Source: Shewanella decolorationis S12 | GTDB lineage: Bacteria; Pseudomonadota; Gammaproteobacteria; Enterobacterales; Shewanellaceae | Assembly (NCBI RefSeq): GCF_000485795.1 | Contig: NZ_AXZL01000076.1 | Span: 559,895 to 583,894 of the forward strand | Direction: 5' to 3' | Length of the DNA stretch: 24,000 nt | Shown here: positions 1,529-10,470 of the stretch, piece after piece | Layout of the letters: every line of letters begins with the position of its first letter | Position numbering within the stretch: position 1 is the first letter of the stretch | The notes under the pieces: model-generated | Told to the model about the DNA's origin: nothing | Databases searched by the model: none | What the model saw: the letters and a program-made list of their open reading frames with translations, nothing else | Made by a program: the position numbers and the translations under genes

Positions 1529-2521
1529 ATGCAGACTCTTGCCCAGCACTTAACCTCAAAGGCAGTGAACGAATCCCTCGCGCAACTGATTTTGACCTTA
1601 GCCGACACCTCCAAAGCCATCAGCCATGCCGTGCGCCACGGTGCCTTAGCTGGCGTGTTAGGCGCGACCGAACAGGAAAACGTGCAAGGTGAAACCCAGA
1701 AAAAACTGGATATCATCACCAACGATATGCTCAAAGATGCATTAAAAGCCGACGGTACAGTGCGCGGCTTAGCCTCAGAGGAAGAAGATCATGTGGTTGA
1801 AGTCAGCGCCAATGGTCAATATCTGGTGTGTTTCGACCCTTTAGATGGTTCATCGAATATCGATATCAACTCGCTGGTCGGCACCATTTTCTCTGTCCTG
1901 CCCGCCCCTGCTGGCGAGCTGACTGAAACGAGCTTTTTACAATCTGGCCGCAATCAGTTAGCCGCAGGTTATGTGCTCTACGGCCCATCAACCATGCTCG
2001 CGCTCACCACAGGCCAAGGCGTGCAACTCTTTACCTTGCACCCAGAAACCAACGAATTTTTACTGACCAACGCGGCCATGAGCATCAGCCCAGACACCCA
2101 AGAGTTCGCCATTAACATGTCGAACCAACGTTTTTGGGAAGCGCCAATGCAGACCTATATCGCCGATTTACTGCTAGGCAAAATTGGCCCGCGCGAAAAA
2201 TCCTTCAACATGCGCTGGATTGCCGCCATGGTGGGTGACGTGCACCGCGTACTTTCTCGCGGCGGTATCTTTACTTACCCAACCGACAATAAAGATCCGA
2301 AAAAGCCATACAAGCTGCGTTTAATGTACGAAGCCAACCCAATGGCCCTTTTAGTCGAGCAAGCTGGCGGTAAAGCCTCTACCGGTTATGAAACCATTCT
2401 GGATATTCAACCAACGCAAATTCACCAACGCGTTGCTGTTATCCTCGGTAGCGCCAATGAAGTGGACGCTTGCCTAAGCTACCATGGTTTGGACTATAGC
2501 GAAGAACCCAATCTGGACTAA
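1529..2521 (+). CDS. fbp: Fructose-1,6-bisphosphatase class 1
   Basis: 330-aa ORF. It carries the class-1 FBPase metal-binding block [11 protein letters not shown] and the C-terminal [24 protein letters not shown] block. Length is typical. A terminator hairpin follows. Confidence 0.95.
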
Positions 2522-2552
2522 GCCGAATCGCTTACATCTTGATTTCTATGAT

Positions 2553-2582
2553 AAAAGCCACTGACCACAGTGGCTTTTTTGT
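2553..2582 (+). terminator. Rho-independent terminator of fbp
   Basis: Stem gccactg (2557-2563), loop acca, stem cagtggc (2568-2574), then a T6 run. An A-run precedes the stem. Confidence 0.7.
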
Positions 2583-2610
2583 TGTCGCGGAATGCGACAA
2601 TTTGAGTTTT
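2582..2610 (+). terminator. Second hairpin directly after the fbp terminator (possible tandem terminator)
   Basis: ttgtcgc (2582-2588), loop ggaat, gcgacaa (2594-2600), followed by tttgagtttt. Confidence 0.35.
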
Positions 2611-2633
2611 GATGCGGCTTTACCGCCGGAGTC

Positions 2634-2682
2634 ATTGCGGCCTAACGGCCGAGGTGAATCAAGATCGTGGGGCTTCACCCTC
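2634..2682 (+). repeat. REP-like ~50-nt hairpin unit, copy U1 (degenerate)
   Basis: attgcggcctaacggccgaggtgaatcaagatcgtggggcttcaccctca. It shares the cggcc-N4-ggccg hairpin and the gtgggg..cttc..accc module with the units at 2748, 5741, 5859 and 5934. Confidence 0.7.
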
Positions 2683-2747
2683 AATCAATTGTGATGATTT
2701 GTTTGGTGTATCACTAACAAAGTTATCGCTGTGAATCGCGATTAGAA

Positions 2748-3038
2748 ATTGCGGCCTTACGGCCGAGATGAATCAAAGTCGTGGGTCTTCAACCCACACC
2801 CGACCAAGAGGGGATCAACAGCAATTCCCTCTTGGATCTCCCTTGCCGCCCCTAGCGAAGTTACATGCATTAGAGACTGGCCTTGGTCTTATGGATAAAT
2901 TGCTATCGCTTCCGAAGGATGCGTCCCTGCACCTGCGAAAGCTAGCCGGTCATCCATGACCGGACTCACGCAATTTATTCCAACGCCCCGCGGCAACTTC
3001 GCAGGGGAAGGTGAACTGCTGGTGTATTGGTGTTGGCT
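2748..3038 (+). repeat. Long (~290 bp) structured repeat, copy L; its outer 60 nt form REP-like unit U2. Candidate ncRNA or ssDNA-structure element.
   Basis: Aligns end to end with the reverse complement of 5506-5797, at roughly 85-90 % identity by eye. The copies differ by compensatory changes in three hairpins. They also share perfectly identical 69-nt and ~47-nt blocks. Confidence 0.85.
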
Positions 3039-3163
3039 GCGGTTAACTGAAAAAGATATACATGTTTCATCTTTGAAGAACATTAACACAAAAGTTTAAT
3101 AGATGGATGTAATTGATTATGCGATACTTTAGGTAACGTAGAAAACTCTAACTGGATTAATGA

Positions 3164-4204
3164 ATGTCTTCAGCAGCAACTGTACCTTCAACAGCTACGC
3201 CTACTAAACAACAGGTATTGTTGAAAGGATTAGAAAGCACAGGTGAGCAATCTTTTGCTCGTGTAGTCGGAGCGAATTACGGCTTCCGCATTTCTAATCG
3301 CTGGGAGAAAACTGCTGTTAATATTGACGAAGATATAAAGTCAACGAATAGCAAGTACCAAAATTGTACAGTTGATAATTTAGAGAACCTGGTTGATAGA
3401 GTCATTATATCGGCTAATCATCATTACACTATTTACAAAGTTTCACAGAAAGATGCAATCCAAATCAGGCAGGAATTGTCAGCCTTAGTTGGACAACCTG
3501 TTAACAATATCTTTGCTCAAACTTACCCCGCTTTAGTCGATTTTAACTCCGTTAATCCTGCCGCAGGGGAGTACCTTTGTAAAGTAGCTGATATGGGAGA
3601 TGGAATTGCTTGTATCTTTGCGTCTATAGTAAAAGAATCGCTACCAGGGTATCGAACTATGACTGCTGGAGTGATTACCTCACAGTACTTTCATACTGTC
3701 TTTGTACCTTACGCTGCCGATAGAATCGAGGTTCGGATAACAGATAATGCTCCAACAAGGTACCATGAGAAACACGCTACAGCGATCAAAATTGAATTCC
3801 AAAATATTATTGGTCAAAAAGGAGTTCACTACCCAACCACACAAGTGAATTTCTTTAAATGTATTGAATCTTATTTTAATGATCCAACTTCAGGTCGAAT
3901 AGCGCATGCAATTTTGACTACAGGTCAAGATAGTAAAGATGCGGAATTGAAAAGCTTACGAAGTAAAGATTACTGTGCCAGAACGCAGCAAGTTGTTGAT
4001 AAAAAGAACAACTTCAACTACGTTTGCCGGGCTATTTTACTTAGAAAGCCCTACACAGGAATCAGTACTGGTGAGATGGATATCAGCTTTTTTCCTCACA
4101 AAAACACATGGGAAGCAAATTTTTGCTGGTGCGTACAAGTAAAAAAACCGCAAACAAGTGCAGCTTTGAATTTAATCATTACTGATGCTATAGCGAGAAG
4201 CTAA
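3164..4204 (+). CDS. Hypothetical protein, 346 aa, no family recognised
   Basis: Long ORF in AT-rich DNA, where random ORFs of this size are unlikely. It is first in a tightly packed three-gene set; its stop is 2 nt before the next ATG. The SD is weak. Confidence 0.75.
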   Translation: MSSAATVPSTATPTKQQVLLKGLESTGEQSFARVVGANYGFRISNRWEKTAVNIDEDIKSTNSKYQNCTVDNLENLVDRVIISANHHYTIYKVSQKDAIQIRQELSALVGQPVNNIFAQTYPALVDFNSVNPAAGEYLCKVADMGDGIACIFASIVKESLPGYRTMTAGVITSQYFHTVFVPYAADRIEVRITDNAPTRYHEKHATAIKIEFQNIIGQKGVHYPTTQVNFFKCIESYFNDPTSGRIAHAILTTGQDSKDAELKSLRSKDYCARTQQVVDKKNNFNYVCRAILLRKPYTGISTGEMDISFFPHKNTWEANFCWCVQVKKPQTSAALNLIITDAIARS

Positions 4205-4206
4205 TA

Positions 4207-4620
4207 ATGAGTATTGAAAGTAGGATTAAGGAATATTCGGCTAGACTCGATCGGTTGGCCGAGAGGCTAAAAGATGAGGATTCATCTAATGTCAATATAT
4301 ACAGAAATTTCTTAACTTTTGTTTCTGATAATCCAGATCATACTTACTATCCAATAACTAAGTTACTTACTGCAGCCAAGTGTAAAGATGCCAATCAAGC
4401 TCTAGATGTGGCAAATTATTTCTCAGTGGGTAGAAATGCACTACTAAACGTTACATTTTGCTATTTTGATTTCGATGGCACTGATATCAGAATTGATAGA
4501 GAGTGCTTTATTGATAGCCTCAATAACAATACTCCACCTGTTGAAGATGAGACTGGTTATCCAATAGATAACTTCGAGCCATCGCGACTAGGTTTTTATT
4601 GTAACTTGATTAGCGAGTAA
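4207..4620 (+). CDS. Hypothetical small acidic protein, 137 aa
   Basis: ORF starting 2 nt after the upstream stop (gctaaTAATGagt). Its composition matches the neighbouring ORFs. No domain recognised. Confidence 0.7.
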   Translation: MSIESRIKEYSARLDRLAERLKDEDSSNVNIYRNFLTFVSDNPDHTYYPITKLLTAAKCKDANQALDVANYFSVGRNALLNVTFCYFDFDGTDIRIDRECFIDSLNNNTPPVEDETGYPIDNFEPSRLGFYCNLISE

Positions 4621-4628
4621 GTTGTGAC

Positions 4629-5462
4629 GTGAATAAAACCGATCAAGAGTTGTTTGAAGTTTTAATATCAACGCCAGAAGGTAAAAAGAAGCTTCAACAA
4701 ATAGCGAAATCTTGTGAAAATCATTATAACGCTTTCATAGATGTCCTATATGCTAGACTGGATACTATCTTTAAAAAGCTAGAAGATTCAAGGGATAAGC
4801 ATTTTTCACATGATGAAGATTCAATAACCGGAGTTATTGCTGGGCGGCTTGAAGAAGCCGGATATATTGCTACAGAACAAACAAAGAAAAATGGTGCTGT
4901 AGATTTAACTGTTCAGCTAGGTGATCATAAGTGGATTGCTGAAGCTAAGATAGCTTACTCAAACAGTAAAATATTAGAGGGATTGTTACAACTACTAACT
5001 CGTTATGTCACAAGAGACGAGCACGCTGGATTACTGGTTTATATCAAAAAAAACAATAGTAAAATGGTGTTAGAAGATTGGAAACGTTATTTAGAAGGTT
5101 GTGATGGTCTGAAATCGTACATAGCAAATAAAAATCCTGAAGTTAAAGATGATCTAGAGTGCATTCTTAACAATGTGGAAACTACCGATATTAATAATTT
5201 CTCTTTTAATTCTAAACATAATCTTGTCTGTGGTTCTTCAATTAAAGTCCAACATTTTTGTGCTGATCTTTATTTTAACCCTGCAGACATTAGTGGTAAC
5301 AGCAGTAAAAAACAAAGAAAAGACAATGCTATTAATAATTTAGCGAATTTATATTTTGAGCATTTAGATTCAAATAATAGTTTCGATAGTAATAAGTGTA
5401 TTGAGTTTTTAGAGAGATTGTTTAGAGATTTAGACCCCGACGATATAAGTCTAGACGAATAG
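4629..5462 (+). CDS. Hypothetical protein, 277 aa, with a PD-(D/E)xK nuclease-like core motif
   Basis: GTG start 8 nt after the upstream stop. Residues 60-125 read ...DEDSITGVIAGRLEEAGY...NGAVDLTV...HKWIAEAKIAY...LLQLLTRY. This fits helix-E / strand-D / strand-ExK / helix-Q of restriction-endonuclease-like folds (D92, E105, K107). The C-terminus is Asn/Asp-rich and of low complexity. Confidence 0.7.
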   Translation: MNKTDQELFEVLISTPEGKKKLQQIAKSCENHYNAFIDVLYARLDTIFKKLEDSRDKHFSHDEDSITGVIAGRLEEAGYIATEQTKKNGAVDLTVQLGDHKWIAEAKIAYSNSKILEGLLQLLTRYVTRDEHAGLLVYIKKNNSKMVLEDWKRYLEGCDGLKSYIANKNPEVKDDLECILNNVETTDINNFSFNSKHNLVCGSSIKVQHFCADLYFNPADISGNSSKKQRKDNAINNLANLYFEHLDSNNSFDSNKCIEFLERLFRDLDPDDISLDE

Positions 5463-5505
5463 GCTCCACGAAATATGGGACAGGCACAACTCTTTTGGGA
5501 TTTAG

Positions 5506-5797
5506 AGCCAACACCGATATAACAGAAGTTCACCATCCCCTGCGAAGTTGCCGCGGGGCGTTGGAATAAATTGCGTGAGTCCGGACATGGATGTCCGGCT
5601 AGCTTTCGTAGGTACAGGGACGTTGCCTTCGGAAGCGATAGCAATTTATCCATAAGACCAAGGCCAGTCTCTAATGCATGTAACTTCGCTAGGGACGCCG
5701 GGGGATTTCCAAAAGGGGAACAGGCGTTTTTCCCCTTTTGGTCGGGTGTGGGTTGAAGACCCACGACTTTGATTCACCTCGGCCGTTAGGCCGCAAT
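5506..5797 (-). repeat. Long (~290 bp) structured repeat, copy R (inverted relative to copy L); its outer end forms REP-like unit U3 (5741-5797)
   Basis: The reverse complement aligns with 2748-3038. It begins 44 nt after the stop of the third island ORF. Confidence 0.85.
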
Positions 5798-5858
5798 CAT
5801 TCACATACCCACAGCGATAATCTTGCCAATTCAAACGCTAAACAAACCAGCATTATTA

Positions 5859-5914
5859 TCGGGTGTGGGGTGAAGCCCCACGACTTTGATTTACCTCGGC
5901 CGTAAGGCCGCAAT
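5859..5914 (-). repeat. REP-like hairpin unit, copy U4
   Basis: The reverse complement reads attgcggccttacggccgaggtaaatcaaagtcgtggggcttcaccccacacccga. Its second stem gtgggg/ccccac covaries with gtgggt/acccac in U2 and U3. Confidence 0.75.
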
Positions 5915-5933
5915 CACTAAACTTCTACATAAG

Positions 5934-5984
5934 GTATGGGTTAAAGCCCCACGACTTTGACTTACCTCGGCCGTAAGGCCGCAA
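5934..5984 (-). repeat. REP-like hairpin unit, copy U5, abutting the stop codon of the 5987..6556 gene
   Basis: The reverse complement reads cttgcggccttacggccgaggtaagtcaaagtcgtggggctttaacccatac. It starts 2 nt after the TAG of the upstream minus-strand gene. Confidence 0.7.
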
Positions 5985-5986
5985 GA

Positions 5987-6556
5987 CTAACTTGCAACAC
6001 AAAGATTTTGCTGAATCTTCCAACGACGTTCCATGAGTGGAATCGAAAAACCATAACACACCACTACAATCAAAGGTTGAAGCTGAAAGCTCAACTCAGG
6101 CCATAACATAAAGGCTGCCACGCAAGCCACAGTGCGCACAATCGCATGCACAATGGCCACCTTTTGCGCCGCTAACACGCCGAAAACCAACCACATTAAT
6201 CCTGTTTGTACAGCAAGGGCGAAGGGCAAGGCTAAATAGTTTTCCATAAAAAAGGGAATACTGATGCTAAAGGTTAAAAAACTCATCCCCATCGCAGCCA
6301 AAAACACAGTCTCAAACCAATTACGATCAGCGCTTTTCTTGAAGGAGATATTCTCACCGGTGAGACGTGAGACTCCCATAGCAAGATAGACAATAGAACC
6401 CGTGCCGATAAATGTTGCCATCACCATTTGCGATGCTGGCAAAATAAAACTCAAGATAAACAATAGCGTCCATACAATCATGCCTGATACAGGCATAGCT
6501 AAAGCACGTTTTTGGCGGTATTCGATAAGTTGTTGATCCAGTGATTGATGTTGCAT
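5987..6556 (-). CDS. Hypothetical polytopic inner-membrane protein (~190 aa)
   Basis: Five or six hydrophobic segments. I prefer the internal ATG at 6556 (MQHQSLDQQLIEYRQK...), which is preceded by a strong SD (caAGGAGGcttaatcATG). The track start at 6643 has no such SD. Confidence 0.7.
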   Translation of the reverse strand: MQHQSLDQQLIEYRQKRALAMPVSGMIVWTLLFILSFILPASQMVMATFIGTGSIVYLAMGVSRLTGENISFKKSADRNWFETVFLAAMGMSFLTFSISIPFFMENYLALPFALAVQTGLMWLVFGVLAAQKVAIVHAIVRTVACVAAFMLWPELSFQLQPLIVVVCYGFSIPLMERRWKIQQNLCVAS

Positions 6557-6635
6557 GATTAAGCCTCCTTGTTGGTATGGCTTAAGTATCCCTGCATCCG
6601 CTAAATCACGGCAGTGTGAGTTGTCAGCAATTACG

Positions 6636-6651
6636 GATGACAAATGTCATC
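6636..6651. promoter_or_regulatory. 7-2-7 perfect inverted repeat gatgaca-aa-tgtcatc; candidate operator upstream of the membrane-protein gene
   Basis: Centred ~87 bp upstream of the ATG at 6556 and just upstream of a ttgctgaca (-35-like) string on the minus strand. The 2-nt centre is too small for a hairpin loop, so a dimeric protein site is more likely. Confidence 0.3.
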
Positions 6652-6718
6652 GGTGGGAATTAACAATGGAACAATCGCTGATAAGCCCAGATTGGAACAT
6701 TGCAATATGCCAGTGGTA

Positions 6719-7426
6719 TTACCCCTCAATATCACCAAGGCGAAGCGCAATACGAATCGCCTCTGCTGTGGTCGCTACGCCCAGTTTTATCCGAATATTG
6801 CGTAGATGGTTTTCAATTGTTCTTGTCGAAAGGCCGAGTGCAAGGGCGATATCGCCTTGTCGTTTACCTAATGCAGTCCATGACAGCACTTGCTTTTCAC
6901 GTTTTGAGAGCGTTTGAGTTTGCGGTTCTTGAGCCTCTAATAGACGACGAGCGGCGGCAAAAGCAGCGCTAGACAACAGAGTTAGCTCGAGGCGAGCCTT
7001 GGCGGAGCTGTCGATGGATTTGCCGCCAAGGCTCATTGCGCCCTCTAGGCCAAGGGGACCAAAGAAGGGAATTTGTAAGCCGTGTATACCCGCCCCTTTT
7101 GGTGTTTTAACGATATGATATTCTTCGTCTTTACCATCAATGGCCTTGGTCCAAAAAAAGGGTTGGGCAGTTTCCAAGATATGGTGAGTCACGGGGCACT
7201 GACGGATATAACTGGTAGCATCGACGGTTTTGCCATTGTCAAACCAATCGCCTTCAATCCAATAAATACGCTCTATGATGCCATCGAGACTCGAATAGGC
7301 TGAGAACAGGACAATTCTATCGTAACCATAAAGGTGAGCCCGCTGTCTAAGCCCTTGTTGAATAGCTGAAAAATGGCGACAAGTTTCAAATTCTAATAAC
7401 AAGCGGGTTATATCATCAGCGGGCAT
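6719..7426 (-). CDS. LuxR-family transcriptional regulator (LuxR solo: autoinducer-binding-like N-domain plus C-terminal HTH)
   Basis: The C-terminus LSKREKQVLSWTALGKRQGDIALALGLSTRTIENHLRNIRIKLGV is a canonical LuxR/GerE HTH. The ~160-aa N-domain has the size and layout of an AHL-binding domain. No luxI-like gene is present in the window. Confidence 0.8.
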   Translation of the reverse strand: MPADDITRLLLEFETCRHFSAIQQGLRQRAHLYGYDRIVLFSAYSSLDGIIERIYWIEGDWFDNGKTVDATSYIRQCPVTHHILETAQPFFWTKAIDGKDEEYHIVKTPKGAGIHGLQIPFFGPLGLEGAMSLGGKSIDSSAKARLELTLLSSAAFAAARRLLEAQEPQTQTLSKREKQVLSWTALGKRQGDIALALGLSTRTIENHLRNIRIKLGVATTAEAIRIALRLGDIEG

Positions 7427-7432
7427 CTTGTT

Positions 7433-8299
7433 TTACCCTTTTTCAACAGAATTGAGTAAGACCTTGGCCGCGAGTTGGCCTAGGGAGTTACCAGCCAAAG
7501 GACTATCTCCTGTCAGTAACTTACGATCCTGATGAGCTTGCCCTGAAATCCCTTCATTAAGGATTTCAAACCCAATGGCTTTAAGCTTTTCGCCAAACTT
7601 CCAAGTGAGGTGTCCTGGCATATAACCAATATCTGGTGTTTGGGCATCCATAGCATCAGGGAAAGCAACAATTTGGTAGCCCGCAAACAAAGGGTCATCG
7701 CCAACAGCAAGAAATGCAGCAGGCCCATGGCACAATGAAATGATAAATTTATCTTGCTCCATTGCCCATTTGATTACCGCTTTCATATCTTCACTCTCAG
7801 GCAAACCGATAAGCGCTCCATGGCCACCAGGTATAAATACCCCTATATAATCAGAGTCTTCACTAAGGGCATTTTGTACAACGTCGGCTAATTTAAGCGG
7901 CTGCCTAAAAGATGAGTGATATTTTTGGTATAAACCTTTGACCTCTTCATCCTCCGATGGCATAGCCCACCATTCAAATTTAACGGGATTACCTGACAGG
8001 GTGGCTATATCAAATGAAAAGCCTGCTTTATCAAGATGGTACATAGGAAGTAATGTTTCAACAGGATGATTACCAGTTGAGAAAAACGTCCCATTATCCG
8101 TCAATAAATAGCGCTCATCGGCGCCAACAAGCAGAATTTTCCAGCGCCCGCCTTTGTACGGGTTGGGGTAATCTGCACCACTGAGATCAGATTTCGCTGC
8201 CGTAAATTGACTTAATGAATAAGGTGAAGGGAAAAAAGCATTATCTTCTGCGGGGTCAAGGGTGGGACGCTTATCGTCATGCACTGCCGTCATAGTCAT
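7433..8299 (-). CDS. hchA: Hsp31-type glyoxalase III / protein deglycase (DJ-1/PfpI superfamily)
   Basis: Near-collinear with E. coli HchA as I remember it: [59 protein letters not shown] (nucleophile Cys), [19 protein letters not shown]. Confidence 0.92.
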
Positions 8300-8685
8300 T
8301 TCCTCAGCTATGTTAAATTAGGTTTCCATTATAGAGACTGATGTTAAATGCAAAATAAGGGATTTCCCCTAAAAATACAGAATATTTATAACAGTTCATC
8401 CACTTCTATAGCATGTCAGACTAAATCAATAGATTTATTTCCTTATTTTCAACATATCTCTATGTTCATCCTACAATGATTCACTTGAAAAATATTTTAC
8501 TAGCCATATCTTTTAGCTACATTTTTCAGCATCGAATTGTCTGGCATTCGACTAAAAGCTGGAAAATTATTGCGTCCAACTCACGCTATATACTGTGGCG
8601 CATAGCACAGCGTTAACTCAGTATGTTATTGTTTTGGCTTCATTGATTTGATTTTTACGCTTTAACCACTAAGGGTTTACTCCAT

Positions 8686-9174
8686 ATGGAACAAATATTT
8701 GAAAAGCTCATGTATGCATCACGCTGGATTATGGCGCCCATCTACTTGGGGCTCAGCCTAGTGCTATTGGGCTTAGGCATTAAATTCTTCCAAGAAATCT
8801 TCCATATTCTGCCGATCATTTTTGAAATGAGTGAAGTGGATTTAGTGCTGGTCACCCTGTCCTTGATTGATATCACCCTTGTCGGTGGCTTGATTGTGAT
8901 GGTGATGTTTTCTGGCTATGAGAATTTTGTCTCACAGCTAGATGTGGGCGAAGACAGTGAGAAGCTCAGCTGGCTGGGTAAATTAGATTCAGGCTCACTC
9001 AAAAACAAAGTGGCTGCCTCGATTGTGGCGATTTCGTCTATCCACCTGCTAAAAATCTTTATGGATGTGAAGAATATCGATAACGACAAAATCATGTGGT
9101 ACTTGCTGATCCATATCACCTTTGTGTTATCGGCCTTTGCTATGGGCTACTTGGATAAGCTGACACGCAAATAA
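8686..9174 (+). CDS. yqhA: UPF0114 family inner-membrane protein YqhA
   Basis: [17 protein letters not shown]...[16 protein letters not shown]...[16 protein letters not shown]...GYLDKLTR closely parallels E. coli YqhA over its full length of 162 aa. Confidence 0.9.
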
Positions 9175-9178
9175 TCAA

Positions 9179-9210
9179 TAAAAAAGCCACTGTAATCAGT
9201 GGCTTTTTTA
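9179..9210. terminator. Bidirectional rho-independent terminator between the convergent genes yqhA and the transporter gene
   Basis: A-run, stem gccactg (9186-9192), loop taat, stem cagtggc (9197-9203), then a T6 run. It would work on either strand. Confidence 0.75.
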
Positions 9211-9219
9211 TTCTGTTGC

Positions 9220-10470
9220 TTAAGACTCGCTATCAACCAACTCGACTTGATGGGCCTTTTCGGTTTGATCGACTATGGTCAATACCGCGGTATCGCCAAC
9301 TACGTTGCAGGAGGTCAGCACCATGTCGATGATGCGATCCAGCGCGGCCACAATCGCAAAGGCTTCAATCGGCAGACCCATTTGATGGATTAACACCCCA
9401 ATCATCACCATGCCGCCACCAGGCACACCACCCGCGCCAACAGATAACAAAAAGATACTAAACAGTAGCGATGGCAGTTGCTCGCTGGTGATTGGCATTC
9501 CGAAGGCATTGGCAACAAAGAAAATTGCAATCGTGATATAAATCGCCACACCGCCCATATTCATGGTCGCCCCAAGCGGCACACCAAAGCCTGCGACGGC
9601 GCGATTCACCCCGAGCTTTTCCGTTAGGGTGCGCATGGTTACAGGAATGGTGGCATTAGAGCTAGCGGTAGACAGGGAAAACAGTACTTGCTCTTGGGTT
9701 TTCTCGCGAAAGCGCTTGGCCGAAATCGGTGTGAAGAACCCCACCGCCAGCGGATAGACCACAAAAATCCACAGTAATAACAGCGCCAGAATGATCACGA
9801 CATATTCGAGCACACTCATAAATACCGCCGCATCTAAGGTGGCGCCTAACTTAAACATCAGCGCAAACACCCCATAAGGCGCAAGGCTCATCACCACAGA
9901 AATCAGTTTCATCATGATTTTATTGGCGGTTTGAAAACCTTGTACCGCGCCAGCTACATGCTCGCCGAGGGATTTAATCACCCCGCCCAGCATCAGTGCC
10001 ATAAAGATCACTTGCAGCATATTGCCCGACATAAAAGCCGCCACCGGGTTACGAGGCACTATATCAATTAGCAGCGCCATTAAGCTGGGGAGTTCGGTCG
10101 CGGTAATGGCCACACCATCTGTGCTGCTCATATCGACGCCTTTACCTGGGTCGAGCAGTAATACGACTAATAGGGCGGTAGAGATAGCGACCAGGGTATT
10201 AACGATGTAAAAGCCGAAGGTTTTGCCGCCAAGGCGGCCAAAGCTTTTTAAGTCCTGCAGCTCACATACGCCGCAAACGATACTGACAAATACCAGAGGC
10301 ACGACCAACATCATGATCATATTGACGAACATAGTGCCGACGCCGCCAGCCAGTTCGACTAAATTGCCAGAAAAGAAGCCAATATCGTTTAGAAAATATT
10401 GCACTAAGGTGCCAAGAATAAGTCCCGCAAACAGACCGATAAAGATCCGTGTCGAAAGTGATTTAATCAT
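9220..10470 (-). CDS. Dicarboxylate/amino-acid:cation symporter (DAACS/SDF) family transporter
   Basis: 416-aa polytopic protein with the family blocks SSNATIPVTMRT and VPLGATMNMGGVAIY. Substrate cannot be assigned from the sequence alone. Confidence 0.85.
   Translation of the reverse strand: MIKSLSTRIFIGLFAGLILGTLVQYFLNDIGFFSGNLVELAGGVGTMFVNMIMMLVVPLVFVSIVCGVCELQDLKSFGRLGGKTFGFYIVNTLVAISTALLVVLLLDPGKGVDMSSTDGVAITATELPSLMALLIDIVPRNPVAAFMSGNMLQVIFMALMLGGVIKSLGEHVAGAVQGFQTANKIMMKLISVVMSLAPYGVFALMFKLGATLDAAVFMSVLEYVVIILALLLLWIFVVYPLAVGFFTPISAKRFREKTQEQVLFSLSTASSNATIPVTMRTLTEKLGVNRAVAGFGVPLGATMNMGGVAIYITIAIFFVANAFGMPITSEQLPSLLFSIFLLSVGAGGVPGGGMVMIGVLIHQMGLPIEAFAIVAALDRIIDMVLTSCNVVGDTAVLTIVDQTEKAHQVELVDSES

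Follow-up and report, generated by a model that had tools for sequence, protein, structure and literature searches.

The TwoAYGGAY motif (RF01731; Weinberg et al. 2010, PMC2864571), reported in gamma-proteobacteria, consists of an outer helix around a pair of neighbouring hairpins with A-Y/N-G-G-A-Y in their terminal loops. Among Rfam models it alone resembles E1, the structured repeat described here from Shewanella decolorationis S12. We analysed a 24,000-nucleotide (nt) window of that genome (contig NZ_AXZL01000076.1), in which the stretch under study, positions 2804-2963, forms the core of the left copy of E1 (~2748-3075); a partner copy at 5470-5797 lies beyond a three-gene cassette. With modest confidence, we lean toward reading E1 from its sequence features as an outward-transcribed 3' untranslated region (3'UTR) and terminator module, probably CsrA-binding, that caps defence cassettes.

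A second point of comparison is the Csr/Rsm family of small RNAs (sRNAs), including CsrB and RsmZ. These present ANGGAX hexaloops directly on stems, an arrangement proposed to be a high-affinity CsrA/RsmE site (Duss et al. 2014, PMC4005645).

Other described elements resemble E1 as repeats in DNA. Correia elements of Neisseria, ERIC/IRU and REP/BIME are dispersed, non-coding, strongly folding intergenic repeats that can provide terminators or change mRNA stability. REPs are GC-rich palindromes of 20-40 nt with an associated RAYT transposase. Their tags fall into the classes GTAG and CGTC (PMC3733652). Integron attC sites are imperfect palindromes of 57-141 nt with RYYYAAC ... GTTRRRY ends that fold into hairpins, set in one orientation along an array. 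In Acinetobacter pdif modules, and in composites flanked by MITEs (miniature transposable elements of the inverted-repeat type), interchangeable accessory or defence modules are bracketed by repeats, as with E1. From Shewanella genomes, numerous orphan cassettes of the attC type are reported (PMC9229058).

A dispersed family in Shewanella

E1 is a dispersed multi-copy family that brackets interchangeable cargo, a point overlooked by a preliminary description of this DNA made from the window alone. A profile search returned 182 matches and 101 full-length copies (103 collected sequences). Scanning one genome per species with an exact pattern found 43 loci, all in Shewanella and several per genome, and a second exact pattern added 51 loci from metagenomes; every named carrier genome is Shewanella. 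Plasmids yielded one copy, 78% identical, beside RHS genes on pSX1 of Shewanella sp. LC6, and searches of phages and of viral contigs found no match to the element. Neither the window nor any of 17 related loci gave an Rfam match at gathering score, in agreement with the preliminary description, which recognised no noncoding RNA family in the sequence, and a literature search found no description of E1 in searchable papers. Related loci are cited below by number (L002 and so on).

A conserved fold with variable stems and invariant loops

Read on the outward strand, the left copy contains the following elements.

2748-3075, minus strand (proposed sense, outward, toward fbp): left copy of E1; nhmmer match 2763-3040 (E 9e-82), inner end set by a family alignment of termini
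2768-2804, minus strand: H0, with stems GTCG 2778-2781/CGAC 2801-2804 and GGGT 2783-2786/ACCC 2792-2795, then TTTGATTCAT (2777 to 2768); intrinsic-terminator-like (terminator-like site 2798-2780)
2805-2834, minus strand: hairpin H1, stem 2805-2813/2826-2834, variable loop
2850-2862 with 2995-3006, minus strand: closing helix P1, surrounding the multi-branch core 2850-3006
2894-2903 with 2970-2979, minus strand: helix P2, surrounding hairpins P3 and H2
2908-2942, minus strand: hairpin P3, basal stem 2908-2914/2936-2942, distal pairs G2921-C2930 and C2922-G2929, hexaloop AGGGAC at 2923-2928
2944-2966, minus strand: hairpin H2, stem 2944-2951/2958-2966, hexaloop AUGGAU at 2952-2957
3051-3075, minus strand: inner terminal hairpin AAAGAT...ATCTTT, where homology among copies stops and cargo-specific DNA starts

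RNAalifold on 45 copies yields 59 pairs, which form H0, H1, P1, P2, P3, H2 and a small P5, and 97.4% of alignment cells are paired. Both partners change in 27 of the 59 pairs, against 13.9 ± 1.3 in shuffles (0 of 500), and the number of double-changed pairs drops to 4-10 when partners are slid. The excess also holds for 89 distinct cores read on the opposite strand, the proposed sense strand, among which 97.7% of cells are paired and single H2 positions use four or five pair types. H1 occurs in three stem variants, with both-sided changes at pairs 75:97 and 76:96 in 16 copies each; the P1 pair 139:310 alternates between A-U and G-C (15 of 45 copies, 28 of 89); and the top pair of H0 is G-C in 30 copies and U-A in 11, which bears out the claim that the outer hairpin covaries between gtgggt/acccac and gtgggg/ccccac.

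That many different stems carry invariant loops is unambiguous, and a conserved secondary structure under pairing constraint rather than coding constraint is supported. The preliminary description had reached the same view from two copies; the many-copy family collected here shows covariation beyond shuffles. Up to five pair types at single H2 positions under an unchanging loop fit a structural constraint, and the remark that small reading frames are not preserved between copies fits the frequent indels in the family alignment.

Mapping the family-supported structure onto the aligned left and right copies gives the same picture within the window. Paired columns differ in 7 of 118 cases, with pairing kept in all seven, and unpaired columns differ in 18 of 124. 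From left to right, full compensations occur at 2808:2831 (G-C to A-T), 2921:2930 (G-C to A-T) and 2950:2959 (T-A to A-T), and a G.T at 2813:2826 becomes G-C. The paired substitutions noticed earlier are therefore real in H1 (2808:2831 and 2813:2826) and in H2 (2950:2959), but the third hairpin, H3, was mispaired. Its C2930 does covary, with G2921 as partner (atGc in the left copy, caAc in the right), and this pair closes a GTCCCT loop; the G-to-A change at G2935 lies at a bulge position and compensates for nothing.

Some copies carry insertions of 15-50 nt in loops or helices, among them a 50-nt insert within the H2 loop; insertion-bearing copies are L012 (4764-4816), L025, L039 and L041 (P2 region), L035, and L009 and L026 (after H0). 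Copies with such inserts look decayed or like targets of still smaller insertions. Tandem partial units and truncated copies also occur, and mosaic copies suggest gene conversion.

Outward-strand features

Several features point to the outward strand, minus for the left copy and plus for the right, as the likely functional one. Two near-invariant ANGGAX hexaloops (CAUGGAUG, CAGGGACG) appear on it. In H2, 81 of 89 copies have the loop CAUGGAUG, which is borne by at least 10 different stems, and the P3 loop always retains GGA, as CAGGGACG, ACAGGAUGU, CAAGGAUG or CAUGGAUG. Inside P3, a U.G pair on the outward strand (C2912/A2938 in the left copy, an A.C mismatch on the plus strand) occurs in 79 of the 89 copies and gives way to C-G in 9 and to U-A in 1, so that the P3 helix is 100% paired outward and carries an A.C mismatch on the other strand in ~90% of copies. 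The H0 helix extends to GUCG...CGAC, directly followed by UUUGAUU, and a terminator scan flagged it in L002 as well as in the two window copies, each time on the outward strand. The same scan found no terminator-like site between the stop of the third cargo open reading frame (ORF3, 5462) and H1/H0 of the right copy.

Searched in E-value mode, TwoAYGGAY also matches E1 on the outward strand only, with all scores below the threshold of 43 bits.

2907-2966, minus strand: partial TwoAYGGAY match, left copy, 28.3 bits
5578-5637, plus strand: partial TwoAYGGAY match, right copy, 28.6 bits

L002 scores 28.8 bits, and the 25.7-bit match in L013 covers the whole model including the enclosing stem, with P2 aligned to the outer stem of the model.

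The preliminary description had weakly suggested an inward (+) transcript from G.T pairs that form only on that strand. On the plus-strand structure we count G.U in 42 alignment cells and A.C in 19 (18 and 15 positions, mainly at helix ends), a tally biased by the fact that the plus fold leaves out the A.C position; the sense-strand alignment was used instead, and the argument from G.T pairs does not hold. Folding energy was also tried as strand evidence. It is 12 kcal/mol better outward in 93 of 94 copies, and we discarded it because it is an artefact of G/C composition: shuffles show an equal offset, and the two strands have similar z-scores.

Arrangement of copies

The copies are strictly polar. 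Neighbouring copies are convergent in 14 cases, tandem in 17 and divergent in none. Of the genes outside a copy, 54 read toward it and 18 away from it, at a median gap of 148 nt. About one third of the cargo ORFs aimed at a copy stop ~0-25 nt from its inner terminus, and the start codons of cargo usually keep a distance of ~90 nt or more from it. The inner terminus is sharp (...TGCCTGTCCnATCTTTC, then cargo); the outer end, by contrast, is ragged and carries 0-3 additional H0 units.

The fbp/DUF7010 locus and its cargo

In the window, an AT-rich island (~36% GC against ~48% in the flanks) lies between fbp and a DUF7010 gene and is flanked by an inverted repeat with two arm pairs, 2827-3038/5506-5717 at 91% identity and 2748-2829/5716-5797 at 89%. 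The right copy begins 8 nt past the ORF3 stop. Short hairpin units, with the H0 unit of each full copy included, number two to the left of the island and three to its right.

1529-2521, plus strand: fbp
2634-2691, minus strand: extra outer unit of direct-repeat family D2, a partial copy of the outer end of E1 (BLAST match to query positions 9-55) with GGCC-loop-GGCC and GTGGGG..CCCCAC hairpins
3164-4204, 4207-4620 and 4629-5462 (span 3164-5462), plus strand: cargo ORFs, AT-rich (~36% GC), co-oriented
5470-5797, plus strand (proposed sense): right copy of E1, from nhmmer and the alignment of copies
5587-5592, plus strand: H2 loop of the right copy, ATGGAT
5616-5621, plus strand: P3 loop of the right copy, AGGGAC
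5710-5740, plus strand: H1 of the right copy
5741-5767, plus strand: H0 of the right copy (terminator-like site 5747-5765), then TTTGATTC at 5768-5775
5859-5916 and 5930-5987, plus strand: two more outer units of direct-repeat family D1 (partial nhmmer matches), each with a GGCC hairpin and an H0-type hairpin with a T-rich tail; a terminator-like site lies at 5864-5882 on the plus strand
5987-6643, minus strand: DUF7010 gene

Pfam and NCBIfam gave no match for the three cargo ORFs and PADLOC no strong one. ORF3 matches the phage protein family phrog_9664 (E 1.5e-43) and, weakly, PADLOC PDC-S54, and ORF1 weakly matches phrog_12777; the three genes may form an uncharacterised defence system. Family-wide, E1 copies border small AT-rich cassettes of very variable content, rich in anti-phage and conflict genes. 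The 117 ORFs adjoining copies fall into 86 clusters, most of them uncharacterised and many defence-like. Pfam and PADLOC matches among cargo include GmrSD, OLD/Gabija-like ATPases, AIPR, NYN, KAP NTPase, Mrr, HEPN, reverse transcriptase (RT), NERD and SUKH immunity proteins; a recurrent recombinase or transposase gene is absent.

Cargo also differs at this one locus, where at least four different cargos lie between equivalent repeats (the window, L028, L045 and L071). L028, 95% identical to the window across fbp, holds a TPR-like protein and a 108-amino-acid (aa) protein; L045, whose Fbp protein is identical to that of the window, holds an AIPR abortive-infection gene; L071 holds a 140-aa ORF, and there DUF7010 itself is bracketed by copies. 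No empty-site allele was recovered for the fbp/DUF7010 locus, as contigs with the same Fbp end within the repeat.

Some further observations concern the surroundings. The intergenic hotspot (window 2521-5990) was compared with L028, L045, L071, L091 and L100, and related strains, one with an identical Fbp, have unrelated genes between equivalent repeats; in some strains copies flank DUF7010 as well. Short-read assemblies end inside outer hairpin units or E1 (3' ends of L046-L051, and L103), and the window cargo occurs in such assemblies as a separate 2.6-kb contig. Adjoining the hotspot, window 6650-8596, which encodes a LuxR-family regulator at 6719-7426 and, at 7433-8299, a DJ-1/PfpI protein, is a further variable segment: the syntenic L028 has ~400 nt in place of these genes, including a fragment of the E1 outer hairpin. 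Near-identical terminator hairpins (AAAAGCCACTG...CAGTGGCTTTTTT), inverted relative to each other, lie at 2553-2584, downstream of fbp, and at 9176-9207, downstream of the gene pair 8686-10470. L045 carries a lysine riboswitch (2923-3097, 92.9 bits) upstream of an aspartate kinase gene ~5 kb from fbp, unrelated to E1.

Related junction sites and a second end element

Three further features occur at related loci, and all are absent from the window. The first is a 27-nt motif, AAATTTAACAATGGGTGTCTCGTTAAAC followed by T (a TTTAAC-N12-GTTAAA dyad), at the exact border of variable DNA; it surrounds cargo in inverted pairs and also forms direct arrays joined to truncated E1 copies. This suggests a site-specific recombination junction. 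By-eye comparison with dif/Xer and Hin-type sites gave poor arm matches.

The second is an 'S-type' subfamily (L002 5040-5300 and 20 other loci) with a conserved ~250-nt extension ending in a 64-nt attC-like site, GTCCAAC-AAGCG-ATTTATGCCCTGC-AAACA-GCGCAGCGCATAAAT-ACTAAGAC-GTTA. The conserved sequence ends precisely with this GTTA, and the start codons of unrelated cargo follow ~25 nt later. The attC-like site is confined to these S-type relatives, outside the window.

The third, E2, is a structured repeat at the far end of some cassettes. Its outward strand carries a CGCCCC-AUGGAC-GGGGCG hairpin and, as a further motif, A-N-GGA-Y with variable N, followed by CUAGCU. E2 may be a distant relative of E1. 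That so different-looking an element shares AUGGAC/ANGGAY motifs on the outward strand argues that the loop motif, rather than a particular fold, matters at cassette ends.

L014 2695-4439; L005 108-134 and 1086-1112; L037 1602-1628 and 2646-2672; L018 3401-3427: sites of the 27-nt motif
L002 3480-3620; L018 3450-3590; L029, L033, L034, L039, L058, L059 and L077: sites of E2

Comparison with described elements

E1 scores 25.7-28.8 bits against a TwoAYGGAY gathering score of 43 yet shares the architecture of an outer helix around two adjacent hairpins with A-Y/N-G-G-A-Y loops. It departs from the model in its second loop, which is mostly AGGGAC rather than AYGGAY, and in a few copies AUGGAU or CAGGAU; in its additional parts (the long helix P1, H1, the terminator-like hairpin H0 and the inner terminal hairpin); and in being a dispersed repeat tied to cassette ends. 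The link to the ends of candidate defence cassettes is new and specific.

Like the Csr/Rsm sRNAs, E1 sets ANGGAX hexaloops directly on stems, its two sites are ~25-30 nt apart, a spacing that would suit one dimer, and its 3' end resembles a Rho-independent terminator. It differs in being multi-copy and linked to mobile cargo. Rfam models for CsrB, CsrC and RsmX/Y/Z gave no match to the window even at E up to 10.

With Correia, ERIC and REP repeats E1 shares GC-rich tandem hairpin units at its outer end, and the H0 unit is REP-like in size and tandem layout, with no GTAG/CGTC tag seen in its sequence. E1 differs in being larger and multi-branched, with asymmetric conserved loops and a strict outward polarity around variable cargo. 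As in pdif, MITE, integron, CALIN and SALIN systems, one site holds different cargo in different strains; the differences are that E1 is a structured ~310-nt element rather than a 28-bp Xer site or a 57-141-nt attC, that no associated recombinase was found, and that its conserved features point to an RNA role. An attC identity was rejected for E1, which is ~310 nt long, multi-branched and inverted around cargo, with inner ends that fold like shuffles. The terminal repeats of MITEs and transposons are short, are recognised by a transposase and have sharply delimited outer ends with a target-site duplication. E1 has ragged outer and sharp inner ends and no recurrent transposase, and no empty site was recovered from which a duplication could be defined.

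A proposed model for E1 function

We infer transcription, termination, CsrA binding and a mechanism of cargo exchange as follows. E1 would act as an RNA read on the outward strand. Where a cargo gene is aimed at a copy, its stop codon abuts E1, which would be transcribed as a structured 3'UTR; the right window copy would in this way be the 3'UTR of the cargo operon. Transcription would terminate at the H0 hairpin and U-tract, and outer H0 units may serve as back-up terminators. The copy at the opposite end would halt transcripts that exit the cassette on that side, so that the pair would insulate neighbouring core genes. The enclosing helix would display two TwoAYGGAY-like ANGGAX-hexaloop hairpins, fit for a CsrA/RsmE dimer, through which E1 may link cassette transcripts to CsrA or titrate CsrA. 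As a side effect, the inverted ~300-bp copies could act as common homology arms that permit cargo replacement by recombination; in inverted orientation, recombination between the two copies would only invert the cassette and not delete it.

A number of observations weigh against this model. The U-tract after H0 is interrupted (UUUGAUU). Promoter scans found nothing above chance, and nothing convincing for the outward strand of the left copy or for solo copies. Solo copies mostly sit antisense to the adjoining cargo and upstream of it, where E1 cannot be its 3'UTR. All TwoAYGGAY scores fall under the Rfam gathering score, each E1 copy has 2-3 GGA loops against 5-22 in sponges, and the GacA/UvrY box (TGTAAG-N6-CTTACA) occurs at chance level only, with none near E1. 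Watson-Crick pairs make up 96% of the helices, and after correction for base composition the two strands fold about equally well; the structure may therefore instead be formed by single-stranded DNA (ssDNA). The 43 and 51 loci were collected with exact patterns taken from Shewanella copies, which distant relatives in other genera would escape, and copies share descent, so counts exceed the number of independent events.

Alternative explanations

The main alternative, which we consider unlikely, is a DNA-level signal: E1, folded as ssDNA or as a cruciform, would be recognised in trans by a recombinase or transposase, in an attC-like, HUH-type or MITE-like manner, that mobilises the cassette, and covariation would preserve the hairpins that the reaction requires. 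Dispersal of the family, inverted pairs around cargo and turnover of cargo at one locus speak for it, as do the nearly pure Watson-Crick helices and the similar folding of both strands. Related loci also have integron-like junctions, the 64-nt imperfect palindrome ending at GTTA before variable DNA and the 27-nt TTTAAC-N12-GTTAAAC at cargo borders, in a genus for which many orphan attC sites are reported (PMC9229058). Against these stand the lack of a recurring recombinase gene in cargo and the absence of the 27-nt motif from the window. The sharp, conserved boundary is the inner end, with a ragged outer end of variable H0 number, the opposite of transposon terminal repeats, and inverted pairs are unlike IS200/IS605-type or integron systems, which have the same strand or orientation at both ends. 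Unlike attC, the inner region folds no better than shuffles (z about 0), and E1, at ~310 nt, is longer than attC (57-141 nt). Nor does this reading explain the U-tract, the U.G pair or the near-invariant but asymmetric ANGGAX loops.

Somewhat less probable again is a selfish or neutral palindromic intergenic repeat of the REP, ERIC or Correia kind that has no host role and accumulates downstream of genes; cassettes would look flanked only since repeats promote recombination and insertion. The position of copies in 3' intergenic regions would follow from this, as would the tandem partial units, the truncated copies, those broken by small insertions and the mosaic copies that suggest gene conversion. 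It sits poorly with a strict polarity of 0 divergent against 14 convergent neighbours, with loops conserved over many stems and shared by E2 on the same relative strand, and with stop codons that tightly abut the inner terminus.

An inward RNA, read on the plus strand of the left copy as a cargo leader or as an sRNA whose C-rich UCC(C) loops are perhaps anti-Shine-Dalgarno seeds, seems improbable: solo copies are mostly upstream of, and co-oriented with, the adjacent cargo ORF, the outer neighbour usually reads toward the element, and a small number of G.U pairs are confined to the inward strand (pair 79:93 in 10 copies and 188:290 in 12), but those pairs sit at helix ends or beside bulges, P3 has the A.C mismatch in ~90% of copies, H0 lacks a U-tract on that strand, promoter scans found no promoter, the Rfam similarity lies on the other strand, and in pairs half of the copies would be antisense to such a role.

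Implications

E1 is a ~300-nt fold with dozens of covarying pairs that is absent from Rfam. Its conserved loops suggest CsrA binding, which, if borne out, could also illuminate the orphan TwoAYGGAY motif. Its strict outward polarity around interchangeable anti-phage cassettes suggests that defence genes are packaged, insulated and swapped in a manner not recognised before. E1 can be used as a marker for mining new defence systems, in loci that are systematically fragmented in draft genomes since the repeat breaks short-read assemblies. A broader possibility, which we offer only tentatively, is an undescribed Shewanella cassette system in which defence genes are docked between outward-facing, TwoAYGGAY-like terminator and CsrA-binding RNAs that double as arms for cargo exchange. 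If so, the orphan TwoAYGGAY motif class would gain a function, and acquired immunity genes would be wired into the global Csr regulon or would titrate it.

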